Shown here: piece after piece, positions 37,754-63,700 of the stretch
How the letters are laid out: the number at the start of each line of letters is the position of its first letter
Position numbering within the stretch: the first letter of the stretch is position 1
Assembly (NCBI GenBank): GCA_964503595.1
Contig: CAZDAM010000003.1
Span: forward strand, 5,844-69,843
Length of the DNA stretch: 64,000 bases
Source of the DNA: an uncultured bacterium
GTDB lineage: Bacteria; Muiribacteriota; UBA6191
Reading direction: 5' to 3'
The notes under the pieces: generated by a model
What the model was told of the DNA's origin: nothing
Databases searched by the model: none
The model's input: the letters and a program-made list of their open reading frames with translations, nothing else
Program-made: the position numbers and the translations under genes

Positions 37754-37757
37754 TTCG

Positions 37758-39902: not shown

Positions 39903-39905
39903 GTT

Positions 39906-41753
39906 CTACCACCAGAGGTACAGACGCATGGTGTCCGTAATGCGGTGAAACAGAATCCAGCCGACACTGCGTCTTCCGGCCTTGATGCGGGCCAGGCCGC
40001 TCATGCCGGGTCGCCACCAGCTTTCCGGGCTCTCTACGAACCGGGCCTTCAGTTCGAAGGTGTTCCCGCTTCTGGGGTCTACTCTGGCAACAGGGACCAG
40101 GGTTTCGATTTCAAAGGGGTATTTCATCTGGGGATTGCTCAGAAGAGCCATTTCTCCCTGTCCGGGAACGGTAATCTCATCAATATCTCTTTCGGGAACC
40201 TTCAGGATGAGATACATGGCCTCAGGCTGGGCAATCTGGTACAGAAGATCGCCTTTGTTGATGGGGGCGCCCATCAGCTTTTCCTTTTCCCCCTCAACAA
40301 TGACTCCATCCTGAGGGGCCTTGAGATCGGCCCTGTTCAGGTAGAACCGGACCCGTTCCAGCTCGGCTTTGGCCTGAGCCAGACGGGCTTCGGAGATATT
40401 CATGTCTGCGAGTCGGCCATCGGCACGGGCCTTCTGGGTTTCCCTCTCATAGCGGGTGACTTCGGCCTGGGCTTCGGTGATTTTGAGATGGATTTCCTCG
40501 GTGTCGATCTGAATCAGGGTCTGGCCTTTGGTGACGGTATCCCCGCTATGGGCCAGTACATTCAGAATCACTCCGTCCATGGGGGAGGAAATGTAGGAAA
40601 TCAGATCGGTTTTGAGTTCGGCTCCGACTTCCACATCATAGTCCCAGGTGCCAAAAGTCAGAAACAGAACAGAGGCGAATCCAATCAGGGCCAGGAGCTT
40701 GGCAAAGGAGTTCTCCGGGCCCAGAAGCCACTGAACCTTGTCCTTCAGATAGTTTTTGAGGCGCTCGCCAGCCCATTGATCGTCGGCATGAAGGCGGGCC
40801 AGAACCGGGGCGCTTTGATTGGCAATCAGTCTCAAGGCCATGATTTCCTGGGGGTGGAACCGGCTTGAGGCCTTTTCAATGGTCAGAACTCCGGCGGGCT
40901 CATCCCTGAATCTTAGGGGGAGGCTGATCACCTGAAAGGCACCGCACTGGGACAGAAACTGCTGGTGGGCAGTCTGAATGGTTCCGGGATCCTCATGTCC
41001 GGGGCAGAGGATCTCTTCGTTCTGATCCAGGCTCTCTTCCATGGCATTGGCCAGACGGACACAGGCTTCGGTCTGGGAGTCAAAGCGCTCGAGATGGCTG
41101 ATGGCCTGAATTTTGATATAGGGGTTCTCATGCCAGCCAAGGCTGACCCGGGATACCTGAAACCGGGAGCAGAGATCGTTGACCAGGCTCATGGAGGCCA
41201 GCTGAAACCGCTCGGCCTTCAGAAGCTGGCTGATGACTTCAAGGGAAGAACCGATCATGCCCTGTTCGCGGGTTTCCCCTGTGTCAGGCAGATTTTCCTC
41301 ACTGATCATGGCCAGCAGTCTGGTGCGGATCAGGAGCTCATTCAGGGCTCTTGAGGGCAGGGGGCCCAGAGCCAGAATGATCAGGTGAGGGGTCTGGGAA
41401 CGTTGAGTTTCGTAGGCGATCACGTTCTGAAGTTCGGGAACTTCGGTGCGGATTTTTTCCAGGGCACAGCCTTTTTCCCTCACCCTGGGCAGCATATCCC
41501 GTCCCGATTCGGCGAGCTGTTCCATGAGGGAATTGGCGTGTTCCTTCGGGTTGAATACGGCATCGACCTGAATCTGCTCTGGGCCGGGAGAAAGAATCAG
41601 TCCGGTGTCAGCGCTACAGATTCCACATACGATTCGCAGATAATCGGACCAGAATGCCTCACTTTTTGGCATCTGGCGCAGGGTTTGAAGTTCTGAAAAA
41701 TACTGGGTCTGGTTCATGGGGAACTCGATTCTTCCGGTTCCGAATTTTCTCAT
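39906..41753 (-). CDS. HlyD-family membrane fusion protein with a roughly 330-aa cytoplasmic N-terminal (GAF-like?) domain
   Basis: Single TM 'LLALIGFASVLFLTFGTW'. Then 'GDTVTKGQTLIQIDTEEIHLKITEAQAEV' lipoyl-like, a coiled coil, and a C-terminal beta-barrel 'ARIKAGRRSVGWILF'. Confidence 0.65.
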   Translation of the reverse strand: MRKFGTGRIEFPMNQTQYFSELQTLRQMPKSEAFWSDYLRIVCGICSADTGLILSPGPEQIQVDAVFNPKEHANSLMEQLAESGRDMLPRVREKGCALEKIRTEVPELQNVIAYETQRSQTPHLIILALGPLPSRALNELLIRTRLLAMISEENLPDTGETREQGMIGSSLEVISQLLKAERFQLASMSLVNDLCSRFQVSRVSLGWHENPYIKIQAISHLERFDSQTEACVRLANAMEESLDQNEEILCPGHEDPGTIQTAHQQFLSQCGAFQVISLPLRFRDEPAGVLTIEKASSRFHPQEIMALRLIANQSAPVLARLHADDQWAGERLKNYLKDKVQWLLGPENSFAKLLALIGFASVLFLTFGTWDYDVEVGAELKTDLISYISSPMDGVILNVLAHSGDTVTKGQTLIQIDTEEIHLKITEAQAEVTRYERETQKARADGRLADMNISEARLAQAKAELERVRFYLNRADLKAPQDGVIVEGEKEKLMGAPINKGDLLYQIAQPEAMYLILKVPERDIDEITVPGQGEMALLSNPQMKYPFEIETLVPVARVDPRSGNTFELKARFVESPESWWRPGMSGLARIKAGRRSVGWILFHRITDTMRLYLWW

Positions 41754-41910
41754 GGATATCCGGATTTGACCAGTTTCGCTTTATCGATTCATAAAGTTCA
41801 TTTAAGGTATTGAAAATAGATCATTTCTATTCTTACGTATGGTAGAATTGTCCCCTGAATTTGCCGATTTTTCAGGTGTTAGAGATAAATTTAGGTAGTA
41901 CAGGAGTCCT

Positions 41911-42660
41911 ATGTTTAAAAAGATTGTGCCGATCACTAAAGATGCCCATAAGAAAACAAAGATCAAAGCGTTGGCAAATTTCGAGTTTGCGAAGGACGTC
42001 AACCTTGCGGCCGTGATGGTCCATGAGTTTTCCCGTGCGGCAGCGACTTACCCGATTGTGTTTCTGGAAGACAAGGAAAAGGACCAGTTCCGTCCTACGG
42101 TTCTTCTGGGCCTTGAGCAGGGCGAAAACCTGTTTGTGAAGGAAGGAAAGTGGGAGGCTTCGTACATCCCGGCCATCATCCGCCGCTATCCTTTTGCCCT
42201 GGCAAATACAAACGAAGCGGATAAGTACACAATCTGCCTCGATGAAGGCAGCGATCTGGTTAATGATAAAGACGGCCAGGAGCTTTTCGACGGCAAGGGC
42301 GAACCAAGTGAGCTGATGGAGCGCGTGAAGCGCTATCTGGGCGAGCTTCAGCAGATGGAGCGTTTCACTCAGGAGTTCTGTGCAGCGATGTCCCATCTGA
42401 ACATGTTCACTCCCCTGAATATGAAAGTGCGCCTTGGCAATGAAATCAAAAACATCAATGGGGCCTATGTCATCAATGAAGAGCGCCTGGGCTCTCTTTC
42501 GGATGAAAAATTCATCGAGCTTCGCAAGAAGCAATACATTCCGGTGATTTACTCCCACCTGAGCAGTCTGTCCCAGATTGAGCGTCTTCTGACCTTCAAG
42601 GACAAGAAGGGTGGAGTGACTCCAGATGCCATCGAACAGTTCTCGGAGACCGTGAATTGA
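41911..42660 (+). CDS. SapC family protein
   Basis: About 250 aa with 'YPIVFL' and 'PAIIRRYPF' blocks, which I recognise as the SapC family (named from the Campylobacter fetus S-layer secretion locus). Divergent from the HlyD/SecA-like operon. Confidence 0.6.
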   Translation: MFKKIVPITKDAHKKTKIKALANFEFAKDVNLAAVMVHEFSRAAATYPIVFLEDKEKDQFRPTVLLGLEQGENLFVKEGKWEASYIPAIIRRYPFALANTNEADKYTICLDEGSDLVNDKDGQELFDGKGEPSELMERVKRYLGELQQMERFTQEFCAAMSHLNMFTPLNMKVRLGNEIKNINGAYVINEERLGSLSDEKFIELRKKQYIPVIYSHLSSLSQIERLLTFKDKKGGVTPDAIEQFSETVN

Positions 42661-42788: not shown

Positions 42789-45700
42789 ATGAGCTCAAAA
42801 ATGAAAAGCCTTGTCAGAACCCAGACCTACATGAAAGCACGCCGCTTTTTTCAGAAATTTACGAAGAAGAAGGAGGCCGCTCCTCAGGTGCTTGATGGCA
42901 GACGGGAACGCTTCCGTCTGGACAGCCTTGAAGAGAGAGTTCTGCTTTCAGCAGATCCGGTTACGGAGACGGCTCATGCGATTTTGCACGAACCTCAGAA
43001 GAACGAGTCCCGAATTGAGCTTTTAAGTGAGGCTTCCCTGCGTCAGCCTACCCTAAGCCTTCAGGAACAGCACCCTCAGGCCGCAATTGTTCTGGATGCC
43101 GGCACGCTTTCCCAGAACAGAAATTCCCTGGAATCCTCCCTTGTGATCGGCGAGAACGAAGTTCTTGGCGGCAGTGGAAATCTGGGCATTCACCTGATGA
43201 ATGATGGCACCGTTGCTCCCGGATATTCTCCCGGAGTTCAGAATGTAGCCAGCTTCACCCAGGCCGAAGGTGCGACCCTTGAAATCGAAATCGGGGGCAG
43301 TGGGGTTGCCGGGGCCTCCGATGGTTTTGATCAGCTCAATGTCTCCGGTCTGGCAAGCCTTGGTGGCAAGCTTGAAGTCACCCTTCTGAATGACTACAAA
43401 CCTCAGGTCGGAGACACTTTCGACATCCTTACCTTTGGCTCGGTGAGCGGAGAATTTGATTCGGTAGGCGGTCTTTACGGATTTTATGCAGATTATTACT
43501 TCGATGTGGTGCAAAAATCCGATCGCATTCAGCTGGTCGTCAAGGAGCTTTTGCCCGGAGATACCTTCGAGATTGCCGCTGACGAGGCCTTTCGAGATGC
43601 CATGTCGGAGTTTCTGGCTCAGGATTATCTCAAGAAGCCGACTTCCATTACCTTTACCGGCTCCATTGATCTTGGAGATGCCTTTTCGGTTGGAGGCACC
43701 TTTACCCTGAATCAGGTCAGCACCGGTCAGGATGTCACTTTAAGTGATGGGTCCACAGTCAATGTTTCGATCAAGACTCTGGGGATGCGGGGCGCTTCAG
43801 CTTCTTTGGGTGGAAGCTTCGGCCTTCAGTTCGGCGGAGCTGATCTGGGAATTGCCATTTTTGATGCAACTTCCGAAGAAGATGGCCGCAGTTGGGTTGG
43901 AGCCCAGGGAAGTCTGGAAAGCGTTTCTCTTTTGAATCTTGGAAGCTACGGCATCCAGGGAGAAAACCTTCAGCTTGACATCTTCCAGGCCCTGGGAGAA
44001 GACAATGATGTTTTAATCGATTTGTCGGAAACCCCGTTGAGTATTTCTGATGGCAGTGGAACACTGGCTGAATTCTCCAATGACGGAGTTTTTGGGGAGT
44101 ATCTGAACGTGGCTGGAAATCTCCAGCTCACCATGCCTTTTTTGAATGTCTCCGGAGATTTCTTTGTCTCCGCGGATGATGCCTCCCTGTTTCTGGCCGG
44201 AGAAAATGTCACCGCTAGCTTTGAAGCCGGAGGCATGACTCTGGGTGTAAACAATGCCCGCTTTGGGGCCTACATTTTTGAAGATCAGAGCATGGTTCTG
44301 GAAGCAACCGGTGGCCTTGTCATGAGTGGAGGCGATTTCACGCTTCCTACTGGCGATTCTGTGAGCCTCAAATACAACACCACTGGCATCGAATTCACCG
44401 ATCTGGAAATGGCGATTGGGGAGAGATCCTTCACTTTTGGAACCATCGAAGCTTCCGAAGAACTCCTGGAATTGAGCATCAGTGGCTTTGAAGCCAACCT
44501 GGGCGGAGTGTTCGGGCTGTCCGGAGACTTCGGTTTCCGCAAAAACGGGGAAGATCTGAATGTGGTGGCTCAGAATGCTGCCGTAAGCCTGAATGCTGGC
44601 GGCTTCAAGGCTGGAGTGAAAGACGCCACCCTGGGTCTGAAAATGAGCGATCTGGGAACCGCCATGGAAGCAACCGGCGCGGCCTGGTTTGAGCTTGGAG
44701 ATGCAGTTTCCCTGAGTGCTGACAGTGTCCAGGTGCTCTATAACGAAACCGGAGAAGACCTGATTGGAACCAGTCTCTCGGCTGCTTCTCTGGAATATAC
44801 CTTTACAGCAATTGAGGGTTCGACGACCCTTCAGCAAGTGGCTGTAAGTGGGGCCAGCCTGGAAGTGGCCGGCTTTGTGCAGGCCAGCGGTAATCTTGCC
44901 GTCAAGCGGGATGAAGTTGCTCTGGAGCTTTCGGATGAGTCCCTGGTTCTGGCCGAGCTTTTGACCATTGGTGGCAAGAATGTAAGCGCCTTTGCCGGCC
45001 TGAATGGTGGCTCTTCCTCCGCTTTGGGCCTTCAGATCAGCGCCCTGACTTTCGGGGTCGCCCTGATGAGCGAAATCGATGGTGAGGAGAGAAGCTGGAC
45101 AGCCGTCTACGGGGAAGCCGAATCCGCCGGATTTGTCGGTCCAGACAGCCTCACGATTTCTGCCAGTGCCCTGAAACTCGAACTGAATCTGGCCTCAGAA
45201 GACGGCCTGGTAGTGGATTTCTCGGAATTCAGTCACAGCGTTCCCGTTGGTGTGGGCGAAAGCCTCAGCCTTACGATGGACGCTCAGCGGGGCGAACTGA
45301 TCAGTGTCAGTGGCAACCTGAACATCCGCATCTTTGATTTCTTCGCCGTCTCCGGAGGCTTTGCCCTGGAAAAATCCACAGAAACTCTGAGGCTTTCGGA
45401 TGAAAGCGAAGTGGAAGTGGAGCTTCTGACTCTGGGAACCCAGGGAGTCTCGGCTTTTGCCGGTCTGAATCATGGCAGTGACAATGCCTTTGGTTTCTCT
45501 TTGGGAGATGTGAGCCTGGCTTTGGTCATGGCCACAGAAAAAGAGGATTCCTCCCAGTCCTATGTGAGCCTGAAAGCTCAGGCTGGCAGCGTAGCCTTTG
45601 AAGGAATCCCCGGAATCACCATTGCCGCAGATACCCTGGCCGTGGAACTGAACCTGGCATCAACAGAAGGTCTTTTGGTGGACTACTCCACCAAAGCCCT

Positions 45701-48700
45701 TACCGTACCCACGAGTTCTTCCACCAATATGAGCCTCACTATGGATTCCGAGGATGGCGAGCTGGTACGCGCTTCCGGAAATATGGATCTGGATCTCTTC
45801 GGCTTTGTGCAGGTTTCCGGGGGCTTTGGTTTTGAAAAGAAAACTGAAGTGGTGACTCTGGCTGATGGCAGCGAAGCCGAAGTCGATCTGATGACACTGG
45901 GGGCAAATGATGTCTCCGCATTCGCCGGAATCGCAGCTTCAAGCTCAAGTCGGGTGGGCCTTGCCTTAAGCGGACTGAATTTCGGTCTGGCCCTGATGTC
46001 CGATAAAAGCCGGGATGATCGCTCCTGGCTGGCCCTGAAAGGAAATGTAGGGGCTGCCAGTTTTGAGGGAATTCCTGGAATGGAGCTGGCCGCAGAATCC
46101 CTCAAGCTTGAAATCAACCGCTATACCGGAGAAGAAGGCGCATCCACAACCGAAACGATTGTGGAAACCTCCACGGAAACGGTCACGACGGAAAATACTC
46201 AAACCACCACAACAACAACCAAAACCGACACGATCTACAAACTGGATCTGAATGGGGTTGTGGCTCCGATTACTTTGAAACTGGGCGGAGAAACAGCCAC
46301 GATTCAGGTAAGCAAAGGGGCCGATTCGGATTCATTGCTGACCTCGATCAGGCAGGCTCTGGAAGGTTTTGCTGCCATTGGCGAAGGCAATGTTACCGTA
46401 AGTGGCAATCTGGTGGCGGGCTTTGAAATCCGCTTTCTGGGCGATCTGGCGGGAACTTCGGTGGAAGGCCTGAGTGTTGAGACCAGCTTCTTTGAAGTTT
46501 CCACAAACAGCTCGGAAACAAAGAATGCTCTGGTGGGCCGAAGTGAAAGCCAGACTCTGACTATTTCCAATCCAACCCTCAAGGGTTCGGGACGCTACAC
46601 CTTAAGTCTGGATGGCAAGAGCACCGGCGAAATCCGTTTTGCCGGATCCGATGTGGGCAACAATGCCCGCTATATCCGTGAGGCTCTGGAAAAAGTTTCC
46701 GGTATTGGAGCGGGTAATGTGAAGGTGGTCTACGACCAGAACTCCTCCACAACCAGCCAGCGCTATATCATCACCTTCAAAAAAGGTCTGGCCTACACCG
46801 ATATCAGCCTGCTTCAGGCCAATAACAATGGTTTGAAGAATGCGATTGTGGCCGTGACTCCGGGGCAGGATGGTTCCGTTGCCAGAGGAGAAACCAACCG
46901 GGTTTCCATCAATACCCTCGGCGATGTGGATCTGAACCTGCGCTTCACGATCAACGGCAAGGAATACCGCACGGATTATTTTGAGTCTGACTCTTCCGCC
47001 GACAAAGTGAAGTTCATGATTGAGCGGGAAGTCTACAGGGATGATATTGAAGTCCAGGTGACCGAGATCGCCAAAGGCACCTGGGACATCACCTTTGGAG
47101 GGGCTGCAACTGGGGTTTCCCTGGATGATTTTCTGGTGAATACATCGCAAAGCATTGAGTCTGCCAAGCTTCTGGTTTCCCAGATGGGTAAGACGGATGT
47201 AGAGACGGAGACGACGACTACCAGCAGCACGGAAACCATTGAGGTGGAAGAGACCACGGTTCTGGAATATCCGGCAGATGTGGTGGTGGACTTCTCTGAG
47301 AGCAATCTTGATGTTCTCACCGGACCCGACGCGACCATTGGGATTGATTTTGACGGAGATCTTGGAAATCTCCTGAGAGCTTCCGGAAATCTGAATATCA
47401 ATCTGTTCAATTTCTTCTCGGCATCCGGGGCTTTTGCTCTGGAAAAGTATGCCAGCGAAGTGACCCTGGATGATGGAAGCACCCTGGAAGTGGATATGCT
47501 CACCATCGGCGGGCATGGAATTGATGCTTTCGCGGGCCTTAACGGAGGAAGCCCTTCCCGTGTTGGCTTTGAGCTCGAGGCTGCTGATTTTGCCCTGGCG
47601 ATTATGACTGGCGTGGAAGACCCGGCTCTTCAATACACCAGCCTTCATGCCAGTGCCGGAAGTGCGGCTTTTGTTGGCTTTGACAATCTCAGAATTGCGG
47701 CAACCGACATCGAGATCCAGATCAATCAGGCTGATGAATACGGCTTTGTCGTGGACTGGCTGAAATCTCCTCTGGCCCTGACGACTGGCCCTGATTCTTC
47801 CACAGAAATGAATATGGATGGCTCGCGTGGAGAGCTTCTGAGCCTGTCGGCCAATATGGAAATCGATGTGGCCGGATTCTTCATGGTCAACGGACGCCTG
47901 GCCTTTGAAAAGTATGAATCCGTTGTGAAGCTTTCGGATGGCAAGGAAGCCGCAGTCAATCTGATGACGATTGGCGGCAAGAATCTCAATGCCTTTGCCG
48001 GAGTCAACGGAGGCAGTTCCGATCGGATGGGGATTGCCATCGACAATACGGAATTCGCCCTGGCCATGCTTCAGGAAAAAGGCGAAGGAGGCCGTAGCTG
48101 GACTTCTTTGAAAGCAACGTCTGATTACGCTGGCCTGGTGGGCCTTGATGGAATTCTGACGCTGAACGGGCAGGGCATTGCCGTCAATATCAATGACAGT
48201 GCTGAGGATGGCACGGTTGTGATGTATGGCGAAGAGGGCATGGCCATTCGGACCAGCGCGGATACCTCGCTGATTCTTGATATGAACCACCCAGGCAAGA
48301 TCATGCGGGCTGAAATCTATCGGGCTACTCTGGATATTGGTGGTTTCATCCAGATTCTGGGTGGAATCTATTTTGAGAAGGCCGAAAACGTCGAAGTGGA
48401 TGTTCGTACCGGCCTGCCGCTGGACTTGAGTGCCAATACTGGTTTGAGCTCCATCAGCTCGGATCTGCAACGTCTTAAGAATGATGGAATTCTGAGTGAG
48501 GACAATCAGACTCTGACCAATCTGAAGGTGGATTCCCTGACTTTTGGAGCCGGAGACGTTGATGTCTTCGTTGGCTACGGCCCTTATTTTGTGGATTCCA
48601 ACAATGATGGTGTCATCGATAGTCATGACACCCCCAACGAGGATGCATTCGGGTTTTCCCTGGAAAATATCGATGTTGGCTTTGTCACCATGCAGGCGGC

Positions 48701-51700
48701 CAAATCGGTGGATCCGAACGGCGTCATTCCCAAGATGTTTGCCCTGAAGGCGTTCTGGGCGGATCCGCTTGATATTGACTGGGGTTTCTTCAAATTTGAT
48801 ATCGATAATCTGATAGTTGAAGCGAACCAGGGTTCCAAGTGGAAGGGCACCCAGGCCACTCCATTCATTGATTTTGCCTCAAGCTTTGAAAACGGCTATG
48901 CCATTCCGACCCCAGGCGGCGATTCGGACATCGTTCTGGATTACAGCTCCTCCGTGATCGGAGCGTCTTTTGGACATACGCTTCTATCGATTGAGAATTT
49001 CTTCACGATTGAAGGTTCCTTCGCATTCTACAAATACGGTGGCATCACCGTTGATATCGCTACCGGACTTCCCGGAACCCTGCCTACCGGAACTGACGGA
49101 AATACCCGTACCGGTCTTCAGCAGCTGAAGAGTGCGGGCTATCTCTCGGATGACAATTCCCGCATCATGGCAATGCCGATGAATGTGATCACCATTGGTG
49201 GAGATCAGGTCAATATCTATGTGGGCGATGTGGATGATCCATTGCTCTCCTTCACCGACATTGATTTTGGAATTGCCCTTTATACCGCTGATAAGGGAAT
49301 TGATACCAAAGGGATCATTCCCCGCATGTATTCCATGCGCGCTTCCATTCCGGATGCCGTTGATATCGACTGGGGCTTTTTGCAGCTTGAAGTCAAGGAT
49401 CTGGTCCTAAAGGCCAATTCCGGAAGCCAGTGGAAGGGCCTGACCGGTCTGAAGCCCTATGTGGATTACACCACAAGTTTTGAAGAAGGCTTTGCCATTC
49501 AAACCGGAAATGAGCCCGTTATTCTTGATTATAACCGTGGCTTTTTGGGCGTGGAAATGGGTTATGCCCTGGTGAATATCGGGGACTTCCTGTTTCTGAA
49601 CGGCTCCTTCAATCTGGAAAAGACCGACAACGTTGCGATCGATATCGTAACCGGATATACCTCATCTTCCTTCTGGACCGCTCCTTCCAAGGTTCAGGCC
49701 GGTCTTCAGAAGATGGGTGGATTGTCTTCGGACAAAACCCGCATTGAAGATATGACGATGTCCGGCTTTGTTCTGGGCGGGGACAGTGTCAATGCCTTCA
49801 TTGGAATGGGTCCTTACTTTGAGGACACCAACGGGGATGGCCGGATCAATTCGGATGATGTCAGAAATGATGGTGCCATTGGCTTTGCCGTGGACAATCT
49901 TGATATTGGTCTGTCCATTTTCAAAAGCATCAAGGCTCTGGATCCGGACAAGGTCCTGCCGACATTCTATGCCCTGAAAGCCAGTGTGGATGCGATCGGT
50001 CTGGTTGGAATCGATTTCTTTGAACTCTCAGCCGAGGGCGTGACCCTCAAGGCCAATTCCGCGAGCAAGTACAAAGGTGCCCAGGTCAGTCCCTGGATTG
50101 ACTTCACTCAGAATTATCCTGATGGATTTGAAGTTTCCAAGGGCAACGGGGAATCCGTCTTCCTGGACTTCAGGGATCCGATTCTGGGGATCAATGTTGA
50201 ACGGGCCACCTTCATCATTGATAAATTCATTCATATCCAGGGAGCCTTCTCCTTTGAGCAGGGAGCCCGTCACCGTGTCAGTGTCGATACGGGAGTGAAT
50301 ACCTTCACAGGCTCTGCTCTGGCGGGCACTCTTGCCCAGCTGGAGCTCAAAACCGATGCTGAGGTCTCTTCCGACTGGACCCGGATTGAAAACCTGGAAG
50401 TGATTTCCACCACGATTGCCCTGAGTGATGTGGATGTTTTCGTAGGCTTCGGGGAACCTGATTTTGATCAGGACTTCAAAGAGCAGGACGATCTTTTCGG
50501 CTTTGGTATCAAGGACGTGGATCTGGCCATCGGCATGTTCAAGATTGCTGCCGACGTCAAAAACTTCCCGACTTTCATGGCCCTTTATGGGGCATCCAGC
50601 CAGTTTGAACTGTTCACCGGTCTTGATTTCTTTGAGTTCTCAGGGGAAGCCCTTCAGATCGAGCTGAACAAGGGAACCAAGTGGAAGGGCTCCGTTGCAG
50701 CTCCGACCATCAATTTCAAGGACAGTTTCCTGCCAGTTGGTGATAAGCCGGCTGGAATGGAGACGGTTGCCGGAACCGAAAGTTTCTACCTAGATTTTGC
50801 CGGTCCGGTCATTGGAGTCCAGGTCTTTGATGCTGTCATGAGAATTGACGGCTTTTTGCACATCGCTGGTGATTTTGCCTTCCGCAAGGAAACCACCAGG
50901 CAGACCATTAAAACGACTCTGGGATCCTATGAGGATGTAAACCTTGAGGCCATGAGCATTGCGGCCAATGATGCCTACCTGTTTGCCGGTCTGAGCTATT
51001 ACGATTTCTCTTCCGGGGAAATGGAGACTCTGGTCGGGGTTGAACTGGAGAATGTGAATGTCGGAATCGGTATGTTCAAGCCGACTCTGGACAATTCTCC
51101 CCTGATTACATCCCAGAAATTCCAGTTCACCACGGTCAAAGCCCATGCCGATCGGGCGGCCCTGGTAGGAATTGAAGATCTTCTGACTGTGGATCTTCGT
51201 GATATCACGATTGAAGCCAATCTTGGCAAAGGCAGCAATCCACTTCTGAAGCCTTTCATTGATTTCTCGGAAGATCCCTATGTGATTGAAGTTGGTGGAG
51301 AAGAAGTCGTCTTTGATTATGACAACAGCTGGCTTCTGGCATCTGTTGGTCTGGCCCATCTTCAGCTTTCCCAGTTTCTTTACCTGCATGGCTCTCTTGC
51401 TATCAGCAAAGCTGGAGCCCGTGAAGTCAAGGTCAATGCCGGGGAGTTCTCCTCTCTTCTGGGTGGAGATACGGTGACCCAGAGTGTTGAAACCATCACC
51501 ATCGGCGGACAGGATCTTTACGGTTTTGCCGGAATCGGCGGACCTTACCGCGAGGATTCCAACGGGGATGGTGTGATTGATGATCAGGACGGGGTCAATG
51601 ACTCTGCTCTTGGGGTCAGTCTGGAGGATGTGGATTTTGGGGTTGCCGTGATGACAACGGTTCTTCCCGGAGGCCTTCCTGCCAAGGGTCTGCCGACCTA

Positions 51701-54700
51701 TGTCGCGACCAAGGCCCATGTTGGACGGGCTGCCCTGATTGGTATGGAAGAGTTTCTGGATGTGGAACTCAACAAGGTGGAAGTCAATATCAACACTTCC
51801 ATCATCAAGGGACTGCCACCTCAGGCAGCTCTGGTGGCCCGCCTTCCGAACATCAATTTTGAAGAGTCCTTTGAAGAGGGTTACTACGCTGTTCCTACCG
51901 GGGCGGATGATGTCCTCATGGACTTCAATAATGAGCTGATTGAAATTTCGATTGGCTATGCAGAAGGAAACCTGGCCGGAATTCTTCAGCTCAGCGGTTC
52001 CATGGCCTTTTCCAAGCGGGGCTCGGAAGAAGTGACCTTAACGGATGGAACCAAGAAAACGGTTTCCACTCTGAGTCTGGGGATTGGAAATGCCTACGGC
52101 TTTGTCGGCTACGGAGGTTACTGGAGAGATTCCGATGGCAACGGCAAGATCGATGAAAACGATATTCCGAATACCTCAGCTGTAGGCCTTGCCATTGAAG
52201 ATTTGAATGTTGGCGTTGTATTCATGCGCGCCATTGACAATACGGATGTCTATGTCGGAGCCCAGGCCGATCTGACCAAGGCCGGATTCGTCGGAATTCC
52301 GGGAGTTACCTTTGAAGGCCGTGATTTCAGCCTCAGCCTGAATGCTTCCGTGACCGGTCCTGCCGTGGATTTCTCGGTATCCGGTGCAGATGGTGGGGCA
52401 TATCATGTGAAAACCGGTGAATTTGATCCGGAAACAGAAGAAGAAATCGATATCCTTCTGGAGCATGATGAGAAGCTTCTGGCAGCCCAGGGTGTTGCTG
52501 AAATCAACTTCTTTGATGTGGTTCAGATTGACGGAGCCTTCGATATCACAGTCGCAGAGTCCGGCATTGTGCTGTTTGCGGATGGCGATGCCTTCATCGG
52601 TGCGGGTGGCATTGGAATGTCCACCAGTGTGACCGGTCTTGTGGCCATTGAAGATGGTATGGCCATGCGTCTGAATCTGGAGCAGGGTCTGGATCTTGGA
52701 CCTCTGGCTTCCTTTGATGCGGAATTTGAATTCCGGATGAATACCTTTGGCCGGGACTATGTCTATGTGGTTCCGGAAAAACTCAGGGAGAAAACCGGAT
52801 TCGATGAATTCGTGGTTTCAGCCAAAGCACCCGGACAGGATGAGGTTTCCGATTTCTATGTCTCCCTGACCGGAGAAGGACACCTGAGTCTTCTGAGTGC
52901 TCTTGATATTGATGGTGAATTTGCAATTGTCTTCACCGAAGACAGTGCCCGTCTGGAAATCGGCGGCATCATCGATATGCCTCTGTTTGAACCTATCGGT
53001 GTTACCGGAACTCTCGGGTTTGAGGATGGCGGGCTTTACGGAGCTCTTCAGCTCGGACATCCATCCGGTTCGACTCTGATTGATGCGGGAGTTTTCTCCA
53101 TCAGCGGTTCTTTCCTGCTTCAGATCAATACGACATCGGAAACCCAGACCGTCAAGGCTCTGGACTTTTCTGAAGACGGAACCATCATTGGTTTCACTAC
53201 CAGAGAGATTGCCGCGGAAGAACTCTATATCGCCGGAACTGCATCGATTGAGCTGGCCGGATTTCTGGAAATGTCCGGCTCCGCAAGCCTGAGGCTGAGT
53301 TCTGAAGGAGTGGAAGCCGATCTGGCCATGAGCCTGGATCTGGGAGCCTTCGGAAGCCTGGAATTCAAAGGTGCTGCCGCAATTCTGAATACTGAGGATG
53401 AGGGCGCGGTCTTTGCCCTGAGCGTGGAAACCAATGTTGTCCTGGGCATGGATATTGTCGGAATTCAGGCTGGAGCCCTGCTTCAGATCAATACCAGCTC
53501 CATGCACGAATATGCAGGTGTTCAAGCCGGAACCACCTTCCTTCTGGAGCTCGACGGGGCCCTGAAGCTTCTGGCCTTCAATATCGATTTTGCCGGATCG
53601 ATCAGCGTGATTGACGGCATCTTTGAACTCCGAGTTGATGAAGCCAGTCTGAGCTTCTTCAATTTCGTGAATATTGAAGTCAGCGGATATTTCCGCTCGG
53701 ATGGAAAATGGAGAGTCAGTGGCGAAGCCCATATGAACATTGACATGGGTCCACTGGAACTCAGTGCCGGCTTTGAACTCACGGTCGGGCACGACATCTT
53801 CCGGGCAAGGGTCTATGGTTCTTTGGATATCAATATCGATATGGGGCTTTTCTCCATCAATGAAACCCTGGCAGGTTTTGAGGGTCTGATTGAAATCACG
53901 GAAGCCTCGGCCCACCTGAAAGCATCCGTTACCATTGTGGGAATCAGTGTCTCCGGTTCCATGACCTGGAGCTGGGGTGCTCCTCCGGTGATTGCTTCCC
54001 AGGTTGGCGACACCGTCATCCTTCACATGGGTGATGATGCTGACAAACGGGGCGATCTCTATCTCGACATCGTCAACGAGACCTATCACATCGAGGAACA
54101 GAAGGGAGTCCTGACAGTCCGCGCCATGGGTGAAACCATGGAATTCCGCAACGTGAAGCGGATTGTCGCCAAAGGTGGCAATGGCAATGACACCATCATT
54201 GTTGGCACGGGTGTTACCGCCAAGCTCGAATTTGATGGAGAAGACGGAACGGACACTCTGCTGATTGCCGGAGGTGCTGAGGGCTCTGTCATTCGTGGTG
54301 GTGCCGGCAATGACTATATGGTTGGTGGAAACGGCGGCATCTACTATTACGGGGATGGTGGCAATGACACCTTCATCGGGGGCGATGGCGGCGAAATCAT
54401 TGACATGGGTACCGGCAAGAACACAATTACAGCTGCCGGTGGAAATGACGTTATCTATATCGGAGCCGGGAATAACACGGTAGATGCCGGTTCTGGCAAT
54501 GACACCATGTATGTGGGCTGGAACGGGTATCTGGAGCTCACTGCCGGATCCGGAGAAGACATTGTCATCATGGATACCCTGGCTTCCAACGAGTCCCTGA
54601 AATTCAAGGATCACAGTCTGGAATACAGCTTAAGGGCCATGGACTTCGGTGATGATCTCGAACTGATTCAGATCAGGGATACCGCGGCGACCACAAAAAT

Positions 54701-57700
54701 CGAGAACAATGGTGTGGACAGCTGGGGTTCCACCGGGCTTTATCTGGAGTCGTCCGGAGTGCTGGATGTCACCGAAGCAAGTCTGATCATGCCCAAAGGG
54801 CAGGTTACCCTGATTTCTCAGGGCATCAACGGGGTTCTGAACACCCAGATCGACACGCTTACGGTTGTAAACCATGCCACAGGTTCTTACGCGGACATTG
54901 TCATTCGTGAAGTCGATGATCTGAAGATTGTGAAGAATGGTCTGGCCCAGGGAGGCATCTATACAGCCGGGGGTCAGATTGATATTCAGCTGAATGCCCA
55001 CGAAGCCAATCTTCATCTCGAATCCGGAATCATCCGGACCCATGGAGCCGGAAAAGGCATTCGCATTGTTGCCGATGATGTGGACTTCAATTCCGGTAAA
55101 GACATGGTTACGGCTTCGGGGCAGTTTGAGCTTCTGACCCGTTCCCAGTCTCAGGGTTACCGAATCGGTGGCGCTGGTCAGTCCTCCTTTGGCAATGACT
55201 ATACCCTCGGCTGGGATAACGGCTACCTGAATTTCTCCATGAAAGACGTGGAAGCTCTGACTGACGGCTTCAGTCTCCTGAAATTCGGCACCGAAAATTC
55301 CACGGCCCTGATGTTTGTCGGGGATCTGGAAAATGCTGACGTGGATGTGAAGCATTTTGATGCCAAAATCACGGATGTTGCGGAATTCCATGCCCGCCGG
55401 ATCAATATCGTCGGGGATGTTCAGGCTTCCCAGAAGGTGACTTTTGCCTCCGAACTCCTGGAAATCTGGCGAACCAATATCAACAATCCGTTCGGACAGC
55501 CGGACTCAGGGATTACAGGCACCGAACTTGTCCTGAATATCAGTGAGCAGATGCTGGTGACCGGCTACATCCGGGCCGAGGACAGCCTGAAAATCCGGGT
55601 GAATGGATCGACGGGTCAGGGTGCCATGGTGACCTATGGAGCCGAGCCGAATTCCTTCACGGCCGATCAGGGCAGTTCGATTGTGACCCTGAATGATGGT
55701 GCCGTCCTTGATATTGAAACGTCCGGCTCCATTTACAGCGCCACGAATATCGAGGTCATGGGCAAGAACTCCCAGCTGAAGATGAAGGCGGGAACAGGAC
55801 TTACCATCCTGGAAGGAGCCGTGGTCGCGGCCCGTTATGACAACAGCTCGATTCTTCTTGAATCCAGCAAGTATCTCCACATCAATTCTGGTGGAGCGGT
55901 TACTGCGGGAGCCCGCTTTGATGATATCAACGGGGAACCGGTTGCCGTAAAAACCGGGGCAAATGCTTCCATGACCCTGAAAACTTCCGGGGAAATGAAG
56001 CTTTCCGGCTCGATTACAGCGTCGGGAAGTATGGAACTGAGTGGGGGCGGGGCAGAATCCGACTACAAAGATTACTTTGATACGATTCCCGGAAAAGTAC
56101 TTGGAAAAATGGTGGCATCGGATACGGTGCTGGCAGCTCTTCAGGCTGGAAACATTGATTCAGCCTTAAGGCAGCTTTTCGCTGAAAATCATCTGGATCT
56201 TGGCAACAGTGTCAGCGTGAACGGAGTCGGTTCCTACACTTCTTTCAATGATCTGACTCCGGAACAGAAAGCTCTGGTGGCTCAGGCTCTGGGCTATACC
56301 GTCTATGAGGGCACCAATTACTACAATCCGGATGCGCCTGCTGGAAGACAGCTGATTGATGCCTTCATTGAAGGCAACAGTCCATTCCTGCAACCGGGAC
56401 AGACTCCCGCGGATCTGGGCTATACCTGGCATGCAGGCACTTTCTTTTACAACCCGCTCACCGGAGAAATCCTCAGTGGTTTCAAACAGGGTGTGTCCGC
56501 AGACTATGACAATGCGGATATCAACTGGGGCAGTGCGGGAGCTCCCGCTTCCGGCACCGGTTTTGATGCCCTTACCGCAGATCAGAAACTCAAGGTTGCA
56601 GCTCATCTGGGATACCAGACCGATGATGGCAAGGATTTCTATAACTTCAATGCTGTTCAGGGTAAGAAAGTGGTTCGCACCTTCACCCAGGGACTGGTAA
56701 CCCAGTACCGCAATGCGGATATCTACTGGGGCAATGTTGCCAAGCCGTCGGATTCCCAGTCATTTGCAAGTCTGAGCGCTGAACAGAAAGCTGTTGTAGC
56801 CAGAACTCTTGGTTTTGAGATGGTCACTGGGGGCGCCTATGTAAATCTCAATGCCAGTGCCGGCTTACAGGTGGTTTCACAACTGACAACGGCTCCAGCG
56901 GATTACCGGTTGTCCCAGATTGATTTTGCGGGAGTTCCGGCTCCTCAGGAAGGGACAGCCTTTGAATCCCTGACTCTGGAACAGCGCAATCATGTGATCA
57001 GCGCACTGGGATACGAAGTCTTTGAAGGTCTGCTCTATATCAATCCTGAGAGCGGATCTCTGGTCACGACATTTACCAGCTACAACGGGGTTGAGTGGGG
57101 CGATGATCTGGCGGCTCCGGCCGAAGGCACGCCATTTGAAAAACTGTCCGGCCAGCATCAGCAGAAGGTTCTTGAGAGTCTTGGCTACAGGGTTTTCACC
57201 GGAACGGCCTACTACAATTCCGACGCAATCCCAAGCAAGCAGTTTGTGCAGGGTTTTGTCGAGGGAGTGGACTATCTGAATTCGGCCATAACCTGGTCCA
57301 GGGTAGAGATTCCGGATGCAGGCACAGCCTTTGAGGACATGACTGCCAATCAACAGAATGCCCTCCTCAAGTCCCTGGGCTATGAAGTCCACAACAACAC
57401 GGTCTTTTACAAGGCAGGAGCTCCGCTTGAGACCCGCCTGATGACAAATTTTGTGGAAGGTCTTCATTACAATAATGCTGATATGCCTTGGGGCGAGTCC
57501 GGAACGGCCGTGACCAACCGCTACATTGTGAATGACGGAACAAATCAGTACGTCATCTACACTCTGGATCAGGAAAATGATGGAATCATCGATGAGATCC
57601 AGATCCAGAAACCGCATGAGCTTCTGGGCCAGCGTGGGTATGGATTCCTGCTGACCGGTACGATTACAACACTGGAAGATGGCCGGGATCTGGTCATTGC

Positions 57701-60700
57701 CAGTGAAGATGACACCATCATCCGGGGCAATATCAACCTGTTGGGAGCAAACTCGGATCTTACGGTTCAGTCCGACAAATGGGTCTTCTGGGAAGGGGCT
57801 GCGAACGTAACCGGAAATATCACGGTTCAGGGTGGAGTTTCTCTGGATGGAACCAGTCTGAATGGTGCCCGTGCCGACGGGACCAGTGTTCTGATTACGG
57901 CAACTTCCAAACTGGTTACCAGTGGCGCTGGAACTTCGATCACCATTCAGGGTGGTCAGGATGTGGACATCATTGGCCGCATCATTGCCGGTGGAGCCGC
58001 AAACAGCAATGGAGTCCAGTTTGCCGGGGATGATTCCCGTGTGGATATCACGGCCGGGCAGCAGATCTATGTTGACAGTGTCGTAACGGCCGCCAAAGCG
58101 GTGACCTTGACCACAACCGGTGTTCCTGGAGCCGATGATGCCTCCCAGGGAGTGATTGTCACTACCGCGGCTGGCCTGACCACGGCTGGTGAAACCAGTG
58201 ACAATTCGGGTGGACTGGTAAAAATTGATGCTGTGGGTGGCGTTCAGATTATGGGGATTGTTCTCTCCGGAGGCACGATTTCCCAGACCTTTGATGCCAA
58301 TGGTGTCCTGACAAGTGAAACGATTGCCTATTCTACCGAAAGGTCATCTGTTGAAATTTCCAGCCAATCCCAGACCTATATTGGCGGGATGGCCCGTACG
58401 GAAACCGGGAATATGGTTGAAGTCGGTGGTGTGATTCGGGCAACCCAGAATATTACTCTGAGCGGAGGAACAAGCTCGGACGATATCGGAGTCAAGCTCC
58501 CCGGTTCCGCCAAGGTGGTCACCACGAACCGCGACAGCAGCATTGTTGTGAATTCCGCTCAGGATGCAGAAATTTATGGCCTCCTGATTGCCGGTGGAAT
58601 TATTACGGATCACCGGGATTCGCTGGGCCTTTATCTGGGGACGACTGTTGAGACTCTGGATGGAAACTCCACAATTTCCGTAGAAGCAGGACATCAGATC
58701 CGGCTTGGTCGTGATCTTTACGCTGGCAAGCTGATTGATCTGAGGGGCGGAACGGATCCTGCCGATGGATCCTCGGAATTTGCCGGTCAGGGCGTTGTTG
58801 TGGGTGGAGCCGTCCATCTGAAGACTTCCCAGGCTGGTTCGACCATCAATCTGAGTGCTTCCGGGGATACCTCCATTCTGGCTCCGGCCTGGACCCAGGA
58901 AATCATTGCGGATGGTTTTGCCGAGTTTGCCAGTGGCAAGCTCAGCCAGGATGTCAGCCTGCATCTGATTGTGAATCTGGGAACCCATACGGTGGAAGGT
59001 ACGGTTCAGCTCAGCGCTCAGGAAACCCAGAACAATACCGGGCTGGCTTCTTTGGTTGCCGATCTGAATGCGGCACTTCTGGCCACCAACTTTACGGTGA
59101 CGGCTTCTCCAGGTGGAAATCCCGTGGTTGGATCCACCCAGCTTTTCAATGCCAATGATCCCGAGGTAACCATCCGTCTGACGGACGGTCGCCTCATGCT
59201 GACTTCGGCCTTTGAAATGACTCTGAAAGGGGATTCCAGCGATTCCCTGATTGGTTTCACCCAGAGTGGGGATGTAGCTTCCACCCGAAGCTACACCATG
59301 GATGCTTCAGCCAGTGGCTCCGTCATCAACATTGGTAAAAAAGATGCCCCCAACGGTCAGATTTATGTGGCAGGCAATCTCAGGGCTCATTCTGCCATCA
59401 ATCTCTATTCCGGTACTGAAGGGGACGGTTCCCAGAATTTCACTCTGGGAGCAACCGGGATTCTGGAAACCCTGAGTGGCAGCGTGGAACTCAATCCGGG
59501 AGATCATGGGGTCATTACCGGGACAATCATTGCCCGCGGTCGCGGTGCCGACATTATCGTTCATTCCAAGCATACCCTTGAAATCAAGGGAACCCTGAAA
59601 GCTCAGGATGACATCACGATCACGGCAGGCTCAATTGAGAAGGCCGGAGAGGAAAGCATCCGAACCCATGGAACCAGTGAACTGATCACTTTTGATGATG
59701 ACGGCCGGATTCTGATTCAGGGTCTGAATGATGTTGTCATCAACAGTGTTGTTGGAACCGGGGGCGGAGCCTTAAGGGAAGTAACGGTTGAATCCACAAC
59801 GGGTACCCTGACTCTGGAAAAAACCTCGGGTCAGATTGAAACCGGTGGTCAGCTGAACCTCAAAGGCAAGAATATCGATCTGGCAGGTACGATCACCAGT
59901 ACCCGCGCGACAGATGCGACTTACGATCATGAAATTTCCATTCAGGCTGAGAATGATGCCAAGGTTCATGGAAACCTGACTCTGGCTGGCTCACTTCTGA
60001 TTGAAACTGGTGGCAATCTTGAGATTTACAACACCAGACTGATGATCAACGGTGAGGGGCAACGGCTGAAAATCCAGAGTACGGGTGATGTCCGTCTGGG
60101 TACAACGGCTCCGGTTCAGGGCCAGGCCAGTGATCGTGCAGTCATTCTTCAGGCCAATCAGCTCATGGATATTCGAACGGATGGGGCCTTCCTTCTGGGA
60201 AGTGATGCCCAGCTCTATACAACCGCGAATCTGAGCGAGATGAAAATTCAGGCTCTGAGCGCGTCGATCGTCGGCTCCATGAGAGCCGGAGCCAGCTTTG
60301 ATGGAACTTCGTCCTATACTTATACAGGGAAAAATTCCAGTCTCAAGCTGAGCACGGATGCTGCTGTTTCCGTTGGAGGCCAGGGCCTTGATGAAAATGC
60401 CAATCTGGTCTCAAGGGGTGGAGATATCTTTGCAACCGGCAAGGTGGATCTGCGCACTGGTATTGGGACCAACGGTCTGGGCATGACGGTTTCCACTTTA
60501 AGCTCCATTCAGGTGGATGCGACTGGTGGCGGGGCTCTGGCAGATGATATTGATGGCCAGATCAACCTGAGATCCGACGGCAGCATTCAGCTTTACGGTA
60601 CTGTCCTTGCCAAGGACAGCGGATCGGATATCAAGATCCAGTCCGAAGGCCTGCTTCTGATCGACAATCTGGTATCCGCTCAGGATCACCTGGAAGTCAT

Positions 60701-63700
60701 CGGCGGAACTTCCTCCTCTGGTGGTCTGATTGTGAACAGCTTTGCCTTTGATGGCAATGATCAGAGAATCGCGGGGGGAACCCTGAATACGGCTCTGAAT
60801 GGCACGATGGTGATCGAGGCTGTTGGCACGATTTACCTCAAAGGGGTTATAGGTCAGCTGGATGGAAGCAACAACGCGATCACTTCCTCGATTTCGGTGG
60901 ATTCCACTGCCGGCGATGTCACGGTAACCGGTCTGGTGGATGCCAGAGATTCCGTAACCATGCTTGGAACGGATCTGAACATCATGCAGGATGCCCACGT
61001 ATTCGCTCAGAATACAGGGGCTCAGGTTCTGATGGATGCCCGCGATGAGCTCTATGTCCAGTCTTCTCAGGCCAGCGGGAATTCCGATGGTCTGGTTTAC
61101 GCTGACAATCTGCTTCATTTAAGAGGCGGGAGCGTTCAGATTGACGGGATTGTGAAGTCGCTTGCGGCCAATTCCCAGATGTTCATTCATTCCGCAGATG
61201 ATCTGATTGTACGTGGACTGGCTCAGTCCGCCGGTAGCGCCACTCTGGCAGCCGGCGTTTCCAGAGACGCTACTCTTGCGACCCTAAGAGCCGGTGTGAC
61301 GACCTCAAACCTGCTTGGAGGAAATGTCCGCATTCTTGGTCAGGGCATGGTGGAAGCCGTTGGCAATGCCAGTGTCCAGGCAGGCCAGGATGTCATTATC
61401 AGTGCCGATTCAACGGTGGCAGGAACCCGGGTCGTTCAGATTCCGGTCATTACAACGGTCGAAGAAACCATCACGGTAACTGTGGGTTACCAGGAAGTTG
61501 CTATCGGGACTGTTTCTGTGCCCGTAATCAGCTGGGAAACCAGTTCGATCACCGAGCAGATTGGAACCGAGAAGGTCAAGGTGGGTGCCGAGAATCTGCG
61601 CATGGATGTCACCCTGCGCCAGACCGGTTACTACAACCCGAATGCTCCGGAAGGTCAGAAATTCCGTGAGATTCTGATTGAAGGCATTGATTACCATAAT
61701 GATGAAGTGAACTGGAACAATGCCGGGAATGAGGCGACTCCAGGTCGTACTTCCGAAGCGGTAACAGCGAATTATAAAGATGCCAGCTATAAGGGATTTA
61801 CCAGCCTGAACGATGCTCAGCGTCAGGCCGTTTTGAACCATACGGGCTACATGAAGCTCTATCAGTTCACCTATGCCAATGCCATCCTGGAAAAAACCCT
61901 GAATGGAAATTACACCGAAACTGCCGTGACTCCTCAGTGGGCAGGCAACGAGCAGGTAATCTACCGTATCGAGGTCGATGGCTGGAAAGACAAATATATC
62001 CAGATGCCCAAAGGTGCCCAGAACGACATTCTGAATGTGGTCACTCAGGGCGAGGCCAAATACCTGACTGGTGATACCACCCGTAACGGGAATAATGATG
62101 GAACCTGGGTCAGTGCTTCTTCCAATCCGGGAGGAGAGCTGGTAGGTCGTTACAAGGATCAGTCCGATGTGAATTACACTCAGGATCGTTCCGACTATTA
62201 CTTCCCAAATGATGGCTACCCTTCCGGGTATCTGAGTCCACATGATGCGGAAGAAGATGGAGAAGCCCGCTGGGATGTGAACTATTCCTCGAATTCCGGA
62301 TATCGTCATTTTGATGTGGAAAGCCGCAATGACAATAAATCCATGATGCGGGATCCAAACTGGTTCTGGCAGGGTACGGCCAAAGCTGACGGCGATGATG
62401 ATTACACAACCGGTTTTGACAATGATCGCTATACCCAGTACATCTGGGCCCAGCAGGATTTCCTGAGCACGCTGTCAGCCGATACGGCGACCTTTGAAGA
62501 AAAATCGACCTCGGTCCGTCAGGATCAGGAAGCTTTCAAGTTCAAGTACTGGAGCAGCTGGTACGGTCTTGGCGGCTACTGGATGGACAATGACGATGGT
62601 TCTGAGATGCCCTATGGTGAAGAGGAAGATGTTCCGACCTGGGGCTGGAGGGATCTGACTGCTGGTGATGAGTCTGTTCTGAAAAGTGTCTGGACGGGTC
62701 ATGATGTCTCCGGTGATAACAACTGGCATCACGATGGGATGAATTTTTCCCACAATTACCTGACAGCGGGCAATTTTTCGAACTGGAAGTCCAATTACCA
62801 GTGGCTGCAATCGACCAGTGTTTACACCACCCAGTTCGGTGGGGATGATGTCGGAGGGTTTGTTCGGGGTAAGTTCGAATACACCCCGGATGACTACGTC
62901 CATGTCGGTGGAGATGGCATCCATAAACGTCCGGTCGTTCTGCAGGATTACAACGACTATGTCTATGACTGGATTTCCGATTGGCATGATATCTATGATC
63001 AGAGGATTCAGCTTCAGTATGAGCTGGTGACTCAGTCTCAGGATATCTTTGACTACCGGCCGATTTATGAGACCAGCACCAAGCAGGTCAAAATCACCCA
63101 GTTTGAAAATCAGACGGTCTGGGAACGTCAGGCGATCACGGATACGGAAACGATTACCTGGACCCAGCGGGATTTCCAGAACGGGGATACCCGTTCCTAC
63201 GGGGAATTTGATGGGGAGTCTCTGAAAGGCTCTGCCATCACGATTTCCACAAACCGTGATGTGACGGTCAGCGGTCTGGTCACGGCAACAGACAGCCTGC
63301 TTGTGAACAGCGGGCGCAATGCTACGGTTCAGGGGACGGTGGCAAGCGGTGCTGAACTGGCTTCCCAGTCCCGTTTAACGGCGGCAAACAGCATCACGGT
63401 CGAAGCTGAGAGCAAGCTGAATCTCATGGATTCAGCCAAACTTGAAGTGACGGCAGCTGACAGTGATATTGTTCTGAAAAGCTCTGGCACTATGAAGGCC
63501 GGCGGTGAAATCCTGGCCAAGGATACAGTGACTTTGAAAGCTGCTACCGATCTGGAGCTTTCAGCATCCATTCAGGCCGGAAATCTGGTAGAGATTAGGG
63601 CAGGGGATTCGACTGTCGGAGATATTCTTGATGGAGACATCACGGCCAATATCTCGGCTCAGATTATCGTGACAGAGGCAGGCTCTGACATTGTCATGAG

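Follow-up and report, generated by a model that had tools for sequence, protein, structure and literature searches.

A giant protein with an RTX block

We analyzed a stretch of 64,000 nucleotides (hereafter the window) from an uncultured bacterium of the Muiribacteriota (contig CAZDAM010000003.1, positions 5,844 to 69,843 of the forward strand). The element under study is a block of calcium-binding repeats-in-toxin (RTX) nonapeptides that an earlier reading of this DNA, hereafter the original prediction, had flagged inside a giant open reading frame (ORF). On translation of the window, the frame of this gene contains no stop codon from nucleotide 42708 through 64000, and ATG 42789 is its first plausible start. 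The encoded protein is beta-rich, with a glycine content of 11.5%. The block and its surroundings are organized as follows.

42789..64000, + strand: giant ORF, 7,070 residues in the window, running off its 3' end; collinear homologues L002, P0260 and P0247
53466..54173, + strand: 'pre' domain, residues 3560-3795, long antiparallel beta-hairpins and a small alpha/beta unit (from homologues and model m07dd140b2e69)
54174..54569, + strand: core of the RTX beta-roll, residues 3796-3927, about 14 units of nonapeptide length, or about 7 coils
54294..54530, + strand: stretch flagged by the original prediction, a subset of the block, residues ~3836-3914 (from translation)
54570..56138, + strand: 'post' region, residues 3928-4450, a beta-sandwich/beta-helix continuation (from blastp; a short-strand solenoid in the model)

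Translation of positions 54294-54530 (+ strand) yielded RGGAGNDYMVGGNGGIYYYGDGGNDTFIGGDGGEIIDMGTGKNTITAAGGNDVIYIGAGNNTVDAGSGNDTMYVGWNGY, identical to the string initially reported. Counted from ATG 42789, it lies at about residue 3835, in agreement with the announced distance of about 3,800 residues. The block itself begins 120 nucleotides upstream of this span and ends slightly past it. The search with HemolysinCabind (Pfam PF00353) that had been recommended as a check gave 42.7 bits (E=5e-11) for a fragment of 177 residues, against a cut-off of 23. A phmmer comparison with the sequences of the PDB retrieved the RTX domain of CyaA at E=3.5e-17, and further matches were region RIV of MpIBP, the Marinomonas primoryensis adhesin that binds ice (3p4g), an RTX-like domain from Aeromonas (9cse), alkaline proteases and lipases. 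With a fragment score over the gathering threshold, a tandem nonapeptide periodicity and conserved Gly/Asp turns, the flagged stretch is a genuine RTX beta-roll within a putative surface protein of more than 7,000 residues. On the other hand, the count of 6-7 canonical repeats was overstated, because only two units of the block are strict, GGNGNDTII (residue 3796, upstream of the flagged span) and GGAGNDYMV (residue 3837, the only one within it), all others being degenerate. Over the whole 7,070 residues, three strict GGxGxDxUx units were observed for 0.23 expected from shuffled sequences.

Predicted fold of the block

An AlphaFold2 model of residues 3780-3965 (186 residues), computed from 20 aligned homologues, reached a mean pLDDT of 95.6 and a pTM of 0.89, with a short strand about every nine residues. 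All of its top ~45 Foldseek matches are proteins with an RTX beta-roll; structurally, MpIBP RIV comes closest, and 9cse is matched by fold as well as by sequence. In a longer model covering residues 3560-4130 (571 residues, m07dd140b2e69, pLDDT 88), the roll stands between two domains, with long antiparallel hairpins upstream and a solenoid of short strands downstream. Foldseek searches with this multi-domain model were noisy, porins and ApoB being matched through its antiparallel beta part.

The region preceding the roll has features of its own. Residues 3560-3740 (53466-54000, + strand) are modelled as antiparallel hairpins of 12-16 residues for which Foldseek proposes porins, LpxR and the beta-belt of ApoB100, and these hairpins recall the 'antiparallel beta-helix' reported for the giant proteins of Omnitrophota. 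Similar long hairpins probably extend over much of residues 100-3740.

Conservation of the block and its flanks

Residues 3601-4500 were searched exhaustively with HMMER against 1.84 billion representative sequences, with 184 proteins retrieved at E<=1e-30, and full-length giants were compared by local BLAST and HMMER. A search with residues 3701-4100 returned mostly generic RTX proteins of at most 700 residues and a single true homologue, P0001. The succession of the pre domain (236 residues), the RTX block (117 residues) and the post region (~540 residues) is collinear in about 25 representative clusters (local BLAST), which display 29-52% identity with the window protein over this region. 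Directly upstream of the block, the pre domain recurs in about 20 clusters of homologues (33-60% identity); the post region recurs directly downstream in about 60 representatives (30-53% identity, blastp).

Within the block, conservation among 20-25 homologues is nearly confined to the Gly and Asp/Asn columns of eight turns, namely GGNGND (3796), GEDGTD (3817), GGAGND (3837), GDGGND (3855), GTGKN (3874), GGND (3884), GSGND (3901) and AGSGED (3919). Most of them lie 18-21 residues apart, that is about one per coil, an arrangement that would recall the calcium row running along one side of MpIBP RIV. Such retention of Gly and Asp is the pattern that selection on calcium ligands would be expected to leave. 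Since these residues and the fixed order of the three regions are kept across the ~25 clusters, at identities below 50%, a function appears to have been maintained.

These data bear on two other explanations. The first is a chance Gly/Asp-rich patch, devoid of any RTX fold, in a protein already rich in glycine, as the presence of two strictly canonical nonapeptides only and a Pfam score falling just under the cut-off in the full-length context (22.2 bits within a query of 3,833 residues) could suggest. The conserved position and Gly/Asp columns in the ~25 clusters show that the block is no such patch, and together with the fragment score, the phmmer matches, the AlphaFold model and its structural matches they refute this explanation, to which we give practically no credence. 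The second is that the block is the roleless relic of a gene fusion, by which an ancestral protein of ~3,900 residues, ending with RTX repeats and a type I secretion system (T1SS) signal, was joined to a downstream giant gene. Two features would fit such an event: the architecture switches sharply at the block, from antiparallel beta modules to a parallel beta-helix, and the distance of the block to the N-terminus differs among homologues (the block lying at residue 2030 in P0263, 3796 in the window protein and 4516 in P0251). However, a relic should hardly keep its order with respect to both flanks and its Gly/Asp residues selectively across ~25 clusters. Moreover, the downstream domain continues directly after the block, with a pLDDT above 90 and with neither a linker nor a signal-like region in between. 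We thus consider a fusion relic improbable.

The block is internal and the family does not end with RTX repeats

RTX repeats usually precede a C-terminal T1SS signal, and the original prediction had left the choice between an internal, 'LapA-like' block and the existence of further blocks beyond the window. We scanned for RTX units with Pfam and with two purpose-built profiles, a generic RTX profile of 36 residues and one derived from the block of this family. A single block was found per family member, at residues 3771-3947 of the window protein, 265-443 of L002, 1368-1557 of P0260 and 1707-1996 of P0247. In the window protein, it is the only one in 7,070 residues and it is followed by at least 3,143 residues, the 9,470 nucleotides left up to the end of the window bearing out the ~9.5 kb initially given. 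That the block is internal was therefore correctly perceived. The comparison with LapA did not hold, as the roll sits in the middle of the protein and not at the C-terminus before a T1SS signal.

As the C-terminus of the window protein is outside the window, we turned to its homologues. L002, a 20.9-kb stretch of a contig from a GTDB metagenome-assembled genome (MAG), is a single open frame collinear with the window protein and 41-57% identical to it. In the ~6,500 residues past its block, no other match to HemolysinCabind or to the RTX profiles and no Pfam domain was found. P0260 is collinear with residues 2473-7068 of the window protein, then with L002, and ends about 2,900 residues beyond the equivalent of the window end. 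Some 6,000-6,500 residues lie beyond the block in L002 and P0260. P0260 and P0247, collinear up to their own C-termini, contain no RTX unit in their last 1,000 residues. RTX units are likewise absent from the C-terminal tails of the giants of loci L005, L007 and L009 (last 230-1,000 residues across the five giants).

These five proteins (P0260, P0247 and the giants of L005, L007 and L009) instead share an extreme C-terminal motif, in the forms FMFEYWIENIAI, FVFEYWIEEISL, WLFEYWTEDVVL, PFEYWIENIAI and MFEYWTNSLVI. A FEYW[IT]E[NED][IV]x[IL] motif placed after an acidic stretch and immediately before the stop is present in all five family giants with a visible 3' end, at the following positions.

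L005, ~3077-3112: FEYW tail
L007, ~646-681: FEYW tail
L009, ~2540-2575: FEYW tail
P0247 and P0260: FEYW tail at the C-terminus of each

The FEYW[IT]E..[IL] tail is possibly a C-terminal secretion signal. From these sequences, the block does lie inside the protein, and the family does not end with a C-terminus of the RTX type. RTX repeats directly before a C-terminal signal, as in classical T1SS substrates, were not found, the C-termini being those of homologues, and the roll is not the signal-proximal RTX block of such substrates.

The window block could still be one of several, with a classical C-terminal RTX array and a T1SS signal encoded beyond the window. The 3' end of the giant gene lies outside the window, and a giant protein from Vibrio of the LEPR-XLL type described below has been reported to carry RTX and serralysin domains at its C-terminus (PMC10868602). 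Furthermore P0295, a distant relative with 31% identity in the post-RTX region, combines a weak internal block with a long C-terminal RTX array (residues 6688-7461), so some branches of the superfamily possess both. However, neither the three collinear homologues nor the tails of L005, L007 and L009 carry any additional RTX block, and the C-termini visible in the family end with the FEYW motif. Further blocks beyond the window are thus quite unlikely.

A member of the LEPR-XLL giants

Apart from its RTX block, the giant protein is nearly blank to domain databases. HemolysinCabind is the sole Pfam family near threshold across the 7,070 residues, no Pfam domain was found in residues 1-3737, and Gluconate_2-dh3 (20.2 bits), the only other Pfam listing, matches over no significant stretch. 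Neither a hydrophobic 19-mer or transmembrane (TM)-like segment in the 7,070 residues nor a classical hydrophobic signal peptide was found. The N-terminus carries the following motif.

42912..42980, + strand: LEPR-XLL motif, residues 42-64, RFRLDSLEERVLLSADP (NCBIfam NF012209, 28.1 bits for a cut-off of 17)

The window protein is thus a member of the family modelled by NF012209, named 'LEPR-8K / LEPR-XLL domain'. The N-termini of P0251 and P0263 are also of the LEPR type (LEPRLLLSAD and LEPRILLSAD). The motif stands in the place of a signal peptide, and residues 1-40 are strongly basic and devoid of a hydrophobic core. The planctomycete extracellular motif PF07595, which was expected at this N-terminus, gave no match, NCBIfam LEPR-XLL being matched instead.

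A proposed role for the roll

We propose a role for the single RTX beta-roll, a predicted calcium-binding internal module that in a family of LEPR-XLL giants always stands between the same two regions, the upstream antiparallel-beta domain and the downstream beta-helical one. It would act as a calcium-triggered folding nucleus, as a ratchet and as a stiff joint in an exported fibre. We estimate the probability of this reading at about 60%. It covers a roll of ~130 residues whose ~7 coils each keep a GxG(N)D turn of the calcium type. It draws on the RTX identity of the block, its predicted fold, its conservation, its uniqueness in the protein and the lack of C-terminal RTX repeats in the collinear homologues. 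The giant protein would be exported unfolded through a TolC-type duct, with a roll that would stay disordered at the low calcium level of the cytoplasm. Upon meeting extracellular calcium, the roll would become a rigid solenoid. The folded roll could then serve as a folding nucleus and as a ratchet preventing backsliding, and could rigidly connect the N-terminal half, made of antiparallel beta structure, with the C-terminal half, which is beta-helical. The transition from disorder to fold is borrowed from established RTX domains, as summarized in bioRxiv 10.64898/2026.03.19.712371.

Several points weigh against this proposal. Half of the turns are degenerate and unconserved (GTGVTA, AGGAEG, GGNGGI, GGDGGE). 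The block of L002 scores only 20.5 bits, under the Pfam cut-off, and calcium occupancy may therefore be partial. Calcium binding and calcium-dependent folding are themselves predicted from the sequence and from a metal-free model. The non-RTX C-terminus of the window protein rests on its homologues, and no ABC transporter or TolC gene is adjacent in the window. The direction and the route of export are hypothetical, and a ratchet would be hard to tell from a purely structural element.

A different role would be that the roll is mainly a ligand-binding face and not a folding unit or joint. MpIBP RIV binds ice through a face of its calcium-bound solenoid, and RTX blocks of CyaA bind the integrin CR3. 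In this respect, it is worth recalling that MpIBP RIV is the best structural match, that a single conserved calcium-type turn per coil resembles its one-sided calcium row, and that the internal RTX beta-rolls of adhesins sit in ligand-binding regions. However, no conserved binding surface is evident, since the block is poorly conserved apart from its Gly/Asp turns. Moreover, the GTGND/Thr-Asx ladder of MpIBP is absent, and the block carries no inserted ('split') ligand domain, the insertions seen in family members being small. A ligand-binding face therefore seems unlikely to us, though somewhat less so than a fusion relic.

Comparison with known RTX proteins

Internal RTX beta-rolls have been documented in the ligand-binding regions of RTX adhesins from Legionella, Vibrio and Aeromonas (bioRxiv 10.1101/2025.09.30.679566; PDB 9cse). 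Like the window block, these rolls are located inside the protein, away from the secretion signal. They nevertheless form 'split' scaffolds with protruding vWFA or other ligand domains, in proteins with BIg extenders and canonical T1SS loci, whereas the window block has no inserted domain, other flanks and another gene neighbourhood. RIV of MpIBP is also an internal roll. Unlike the window protein, MpIBP possesses in addition a classical C-terminal RTX block with a T1SS signal and an ABC-type T1SS, while the collinear homologues of the window protein are devoid of C-terminal RTX repeats. RIV is made of regular repeats of 19 residues and carries a Thr/Asx ladder that binds ice, whereas the coils of the window block are irregular and show no ladder.

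The beta-rolls of CyaA, serralysin and lipases (PF00353) stand directly before the C-terminal T1SS signal and bear calcium-type turns on both edges. By contrast, at least 3,100 residues follow the window block and every second turn is degenerate. LapA resembles the window protein in being a giant, repetitive, presumably surface-exposed and RTX-bearing protein of a diderm. It differs by its N-terminal retention module with a LapG site, its BIg-like repeats, its C-terminal RTX repeats and T1SS signal, and LapEBC, its T1SS of the ABC type. The window protein shows instead a LEPR-XLL N-terminus, no Pfam repeat domains, a mid-protein RTX block and no adjacent ABC transporter. An N-terminal retention module and BIg-type extender repeats of the LapA/MpIBP type were thus not found, residues 1-3737 being free of Pfam domains.

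As internal RTX rolls are already known in MpIBP and in RTX adhesins, the block by itself is fairly ordinary, a further example of such a roll in a giant surface protein. Its value lies rather in annotation. It is the only element recognizable by Pfam in 7,070 residues, and routine annotation would leave the protein blank because the score in the long-query context stays below the cut-off. As an anchor, the block would mark the giant protein as extracellular and calcium-dependent, judging from its sequence and model. It also led to a LEPR-XLL giant family with a conserved C-terminal tail and to an associated gene cassette of the SapC/OEP/MFP/M50/SecA-like type, which we present below and consider a more novel lead than the block itself.

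A candidate export cassette next to the giant gene

The giant gene is preceded by a SapC-family gene and by three genes on the opposite strand. The latter belong to a cassette that in relatives also includes a small membrane fusion protein (MFP) and an outer membrane efflux protein (OEP).

35792..37753, - strand: short SecA-like ATPase, 653 residues (Pfam: DEAD motor, preprotein cross-linking domain, second P-loop domain)
37758..39902, - strand: polytopic M50/HExxH metalloprotease-like protein with an MFP-like segment (Pfam Peptidase_M50; HEMGH at residue 209)
39906..41753, - strand: GAF domain, one TM segment and HlyD-type MFP (Pfam HlyD_D23, HlyD_3, GAF; TM-like residues 348-371)
41911..42660, + strand: SapC-family gene, directly upstream of the giant gene (Pfam SapC, 245.9 bits)

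SapC is a family associated with type I secretion. The window copy is 64% identical to the SapC encoded between the giant and OEP genes in locus L009, from the cultured bacterium Pseudomaricurvus alkylphenolicus. The GAF-MFP gene is divergent from the SapC and giant genes and has orthologues with 38-41% identity in L005, L007 and L009. The M50-like protein displays about 6-7 TM-like segments and orthologues with 48-50% identity; an NCBIfam model of a daptide-type HExxH protease matches it with 155 bits, under its cut-off. The SecA-like ATPase lacks the canonical C-terminal part of SecA, the NCBIfam SecA models covering positions ~15-600 of ~800 with sub-cut-off scores, and belongs to a widespread family of ~655 residues.

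In relatives, the operon order is TolC-like OEP, small MFP, (GAF-)MFP, M50-like and SecA-like. This operon lies directly downstream of a FEYW-tailed giant gene in L005 (a Cloacimonadota MAG), in L007 and L008 (metagenome contigs) and in L009, where the giant reaches 12,658 residues and SapC is encoded between the giant gene and the operon. The locus pair L003/L004 possesses the operon with no giant gene nearby. The operon positions are:

window, 35792-41753, - strand
L005, 3194-11971
L007, 3614-11959
L009, 3446-12013

In four independent genomes or contigs, the conserved operon is adjacent to a giant gene. The ABC transporter is absent from all four cassettes, and no canonical T1SS gene (ABC or TolC) was found among the other genes of the window. 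Its only ABC gene is MsbA-like and belongs to a lipid A cluster 37 kb away. The window copy of the cassette has no OEP and no small-MFP gene. With regard to a T1SS gene set, an MFP and SapC adjoin the giant gene in the window, and a TolC-like OEP is adjacent only in relatives.

A related organization is the sapC-giant-tolC locus Cag_662-665 of Chlorobium chlorochromatii, for whose giants an export starting from the C-terminus and assisted by calcium has been hypothesized (bioRxiv 10.64898/2026.03.19.712371). Giants of this type are described as beta-helical with many predicted cation sites, and folding by extracellular calcium has been hypothesized (same reference). By its description, the Cag locus resembles the window in having SapC beside the giant gene, the TolC-like OEP being adjacent in the relatives of the window. 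The SecA-like, M50-like and GAF-MFP genes, present in the window, are not described for the Cag locus.

A rather doubtful hypothesis would be that the RTX block is the calcium ratchet for a substrate of an undescribed type I-like export system, in which the SecA-like ATPase would replace the ABC transporter. Such a system would comprise SapC, a TolC-like channel, the SecA-like ATPase working with the M50/HExxH membrane protein, and two MFPs, one of them bearing a GAF sensor on the cytoplasmic side. It would export LEPR-XLL giants of between 7,000 and more than 12,000 residues, which the N-terminal LEPR-XLL motif and the conserved FEYW tail would mark as substrates. The LEPR-XLL motif is possibly a signal for cleavage by the M50 protein or for retention. 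If the cassette does export the giants, this would explain how signal-peptide-less proteins of 1 MDa are transported in diderms with no ABC transporter. A link could then be drawn with the giant proteins of Omnitrophota, for which fused truncated SecA domains have been reported. In the literature, we found no paper on the SecA-like/M50/MFP/OEP cassette, on the FEYW tail or on a link of these with LEPR-XLL proteins.

Other features of the window

A minus-strand ORF of 228 residues (41872-42558) was considered as a candidate for the small MFP and rejected, as it has no family match and no homologue and shadows SapC on the plus strand. A 598-residue antisense ORF (52818-54614, - strand) overlapping the RTX block is not conserved, the equivalent region of L002 containing no antisense ORF of at least 200 residues. 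It is best explained as a by-product of the GGN/GAY-rich coding of the plus strand.

Downstream of the roll, the giant protein contains seven tandem repeats of ~60-67 residues (56196-57488, + strand, residues ~4470-4900) with the signature F..L(S/T)..Q+..(V/L)...LGY......(Y/F)YN....G. No Pfam family matches these repeats, which L002 and P0263 also contain. Further on, a non-repetitive domain rich in Trp, Tyr and Asp, YYNPNAPEGQKFREILIEGIDYHNDEVNWNN (61476-63188, + strand, residues ~6230-6800), breaks up the beta-helical repeats. It has no Pfam or NCBIfam match and is kept in L002 and at the end of P0361.

The remaining window genes, which belong to a diderm bacterium, include lipid A and RND efflux genes as well as transporters. 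For LpxB and the SecA-like protein, the nearest matches (54-55%) are proteins of Cloacimonadota MAGs. Two LpxB paralogues (2790-3926 and 5671-6840, + strand) flank the MsbA-like ABC gene, in a cluster that also encodes LpxI and a late acyltransferase.

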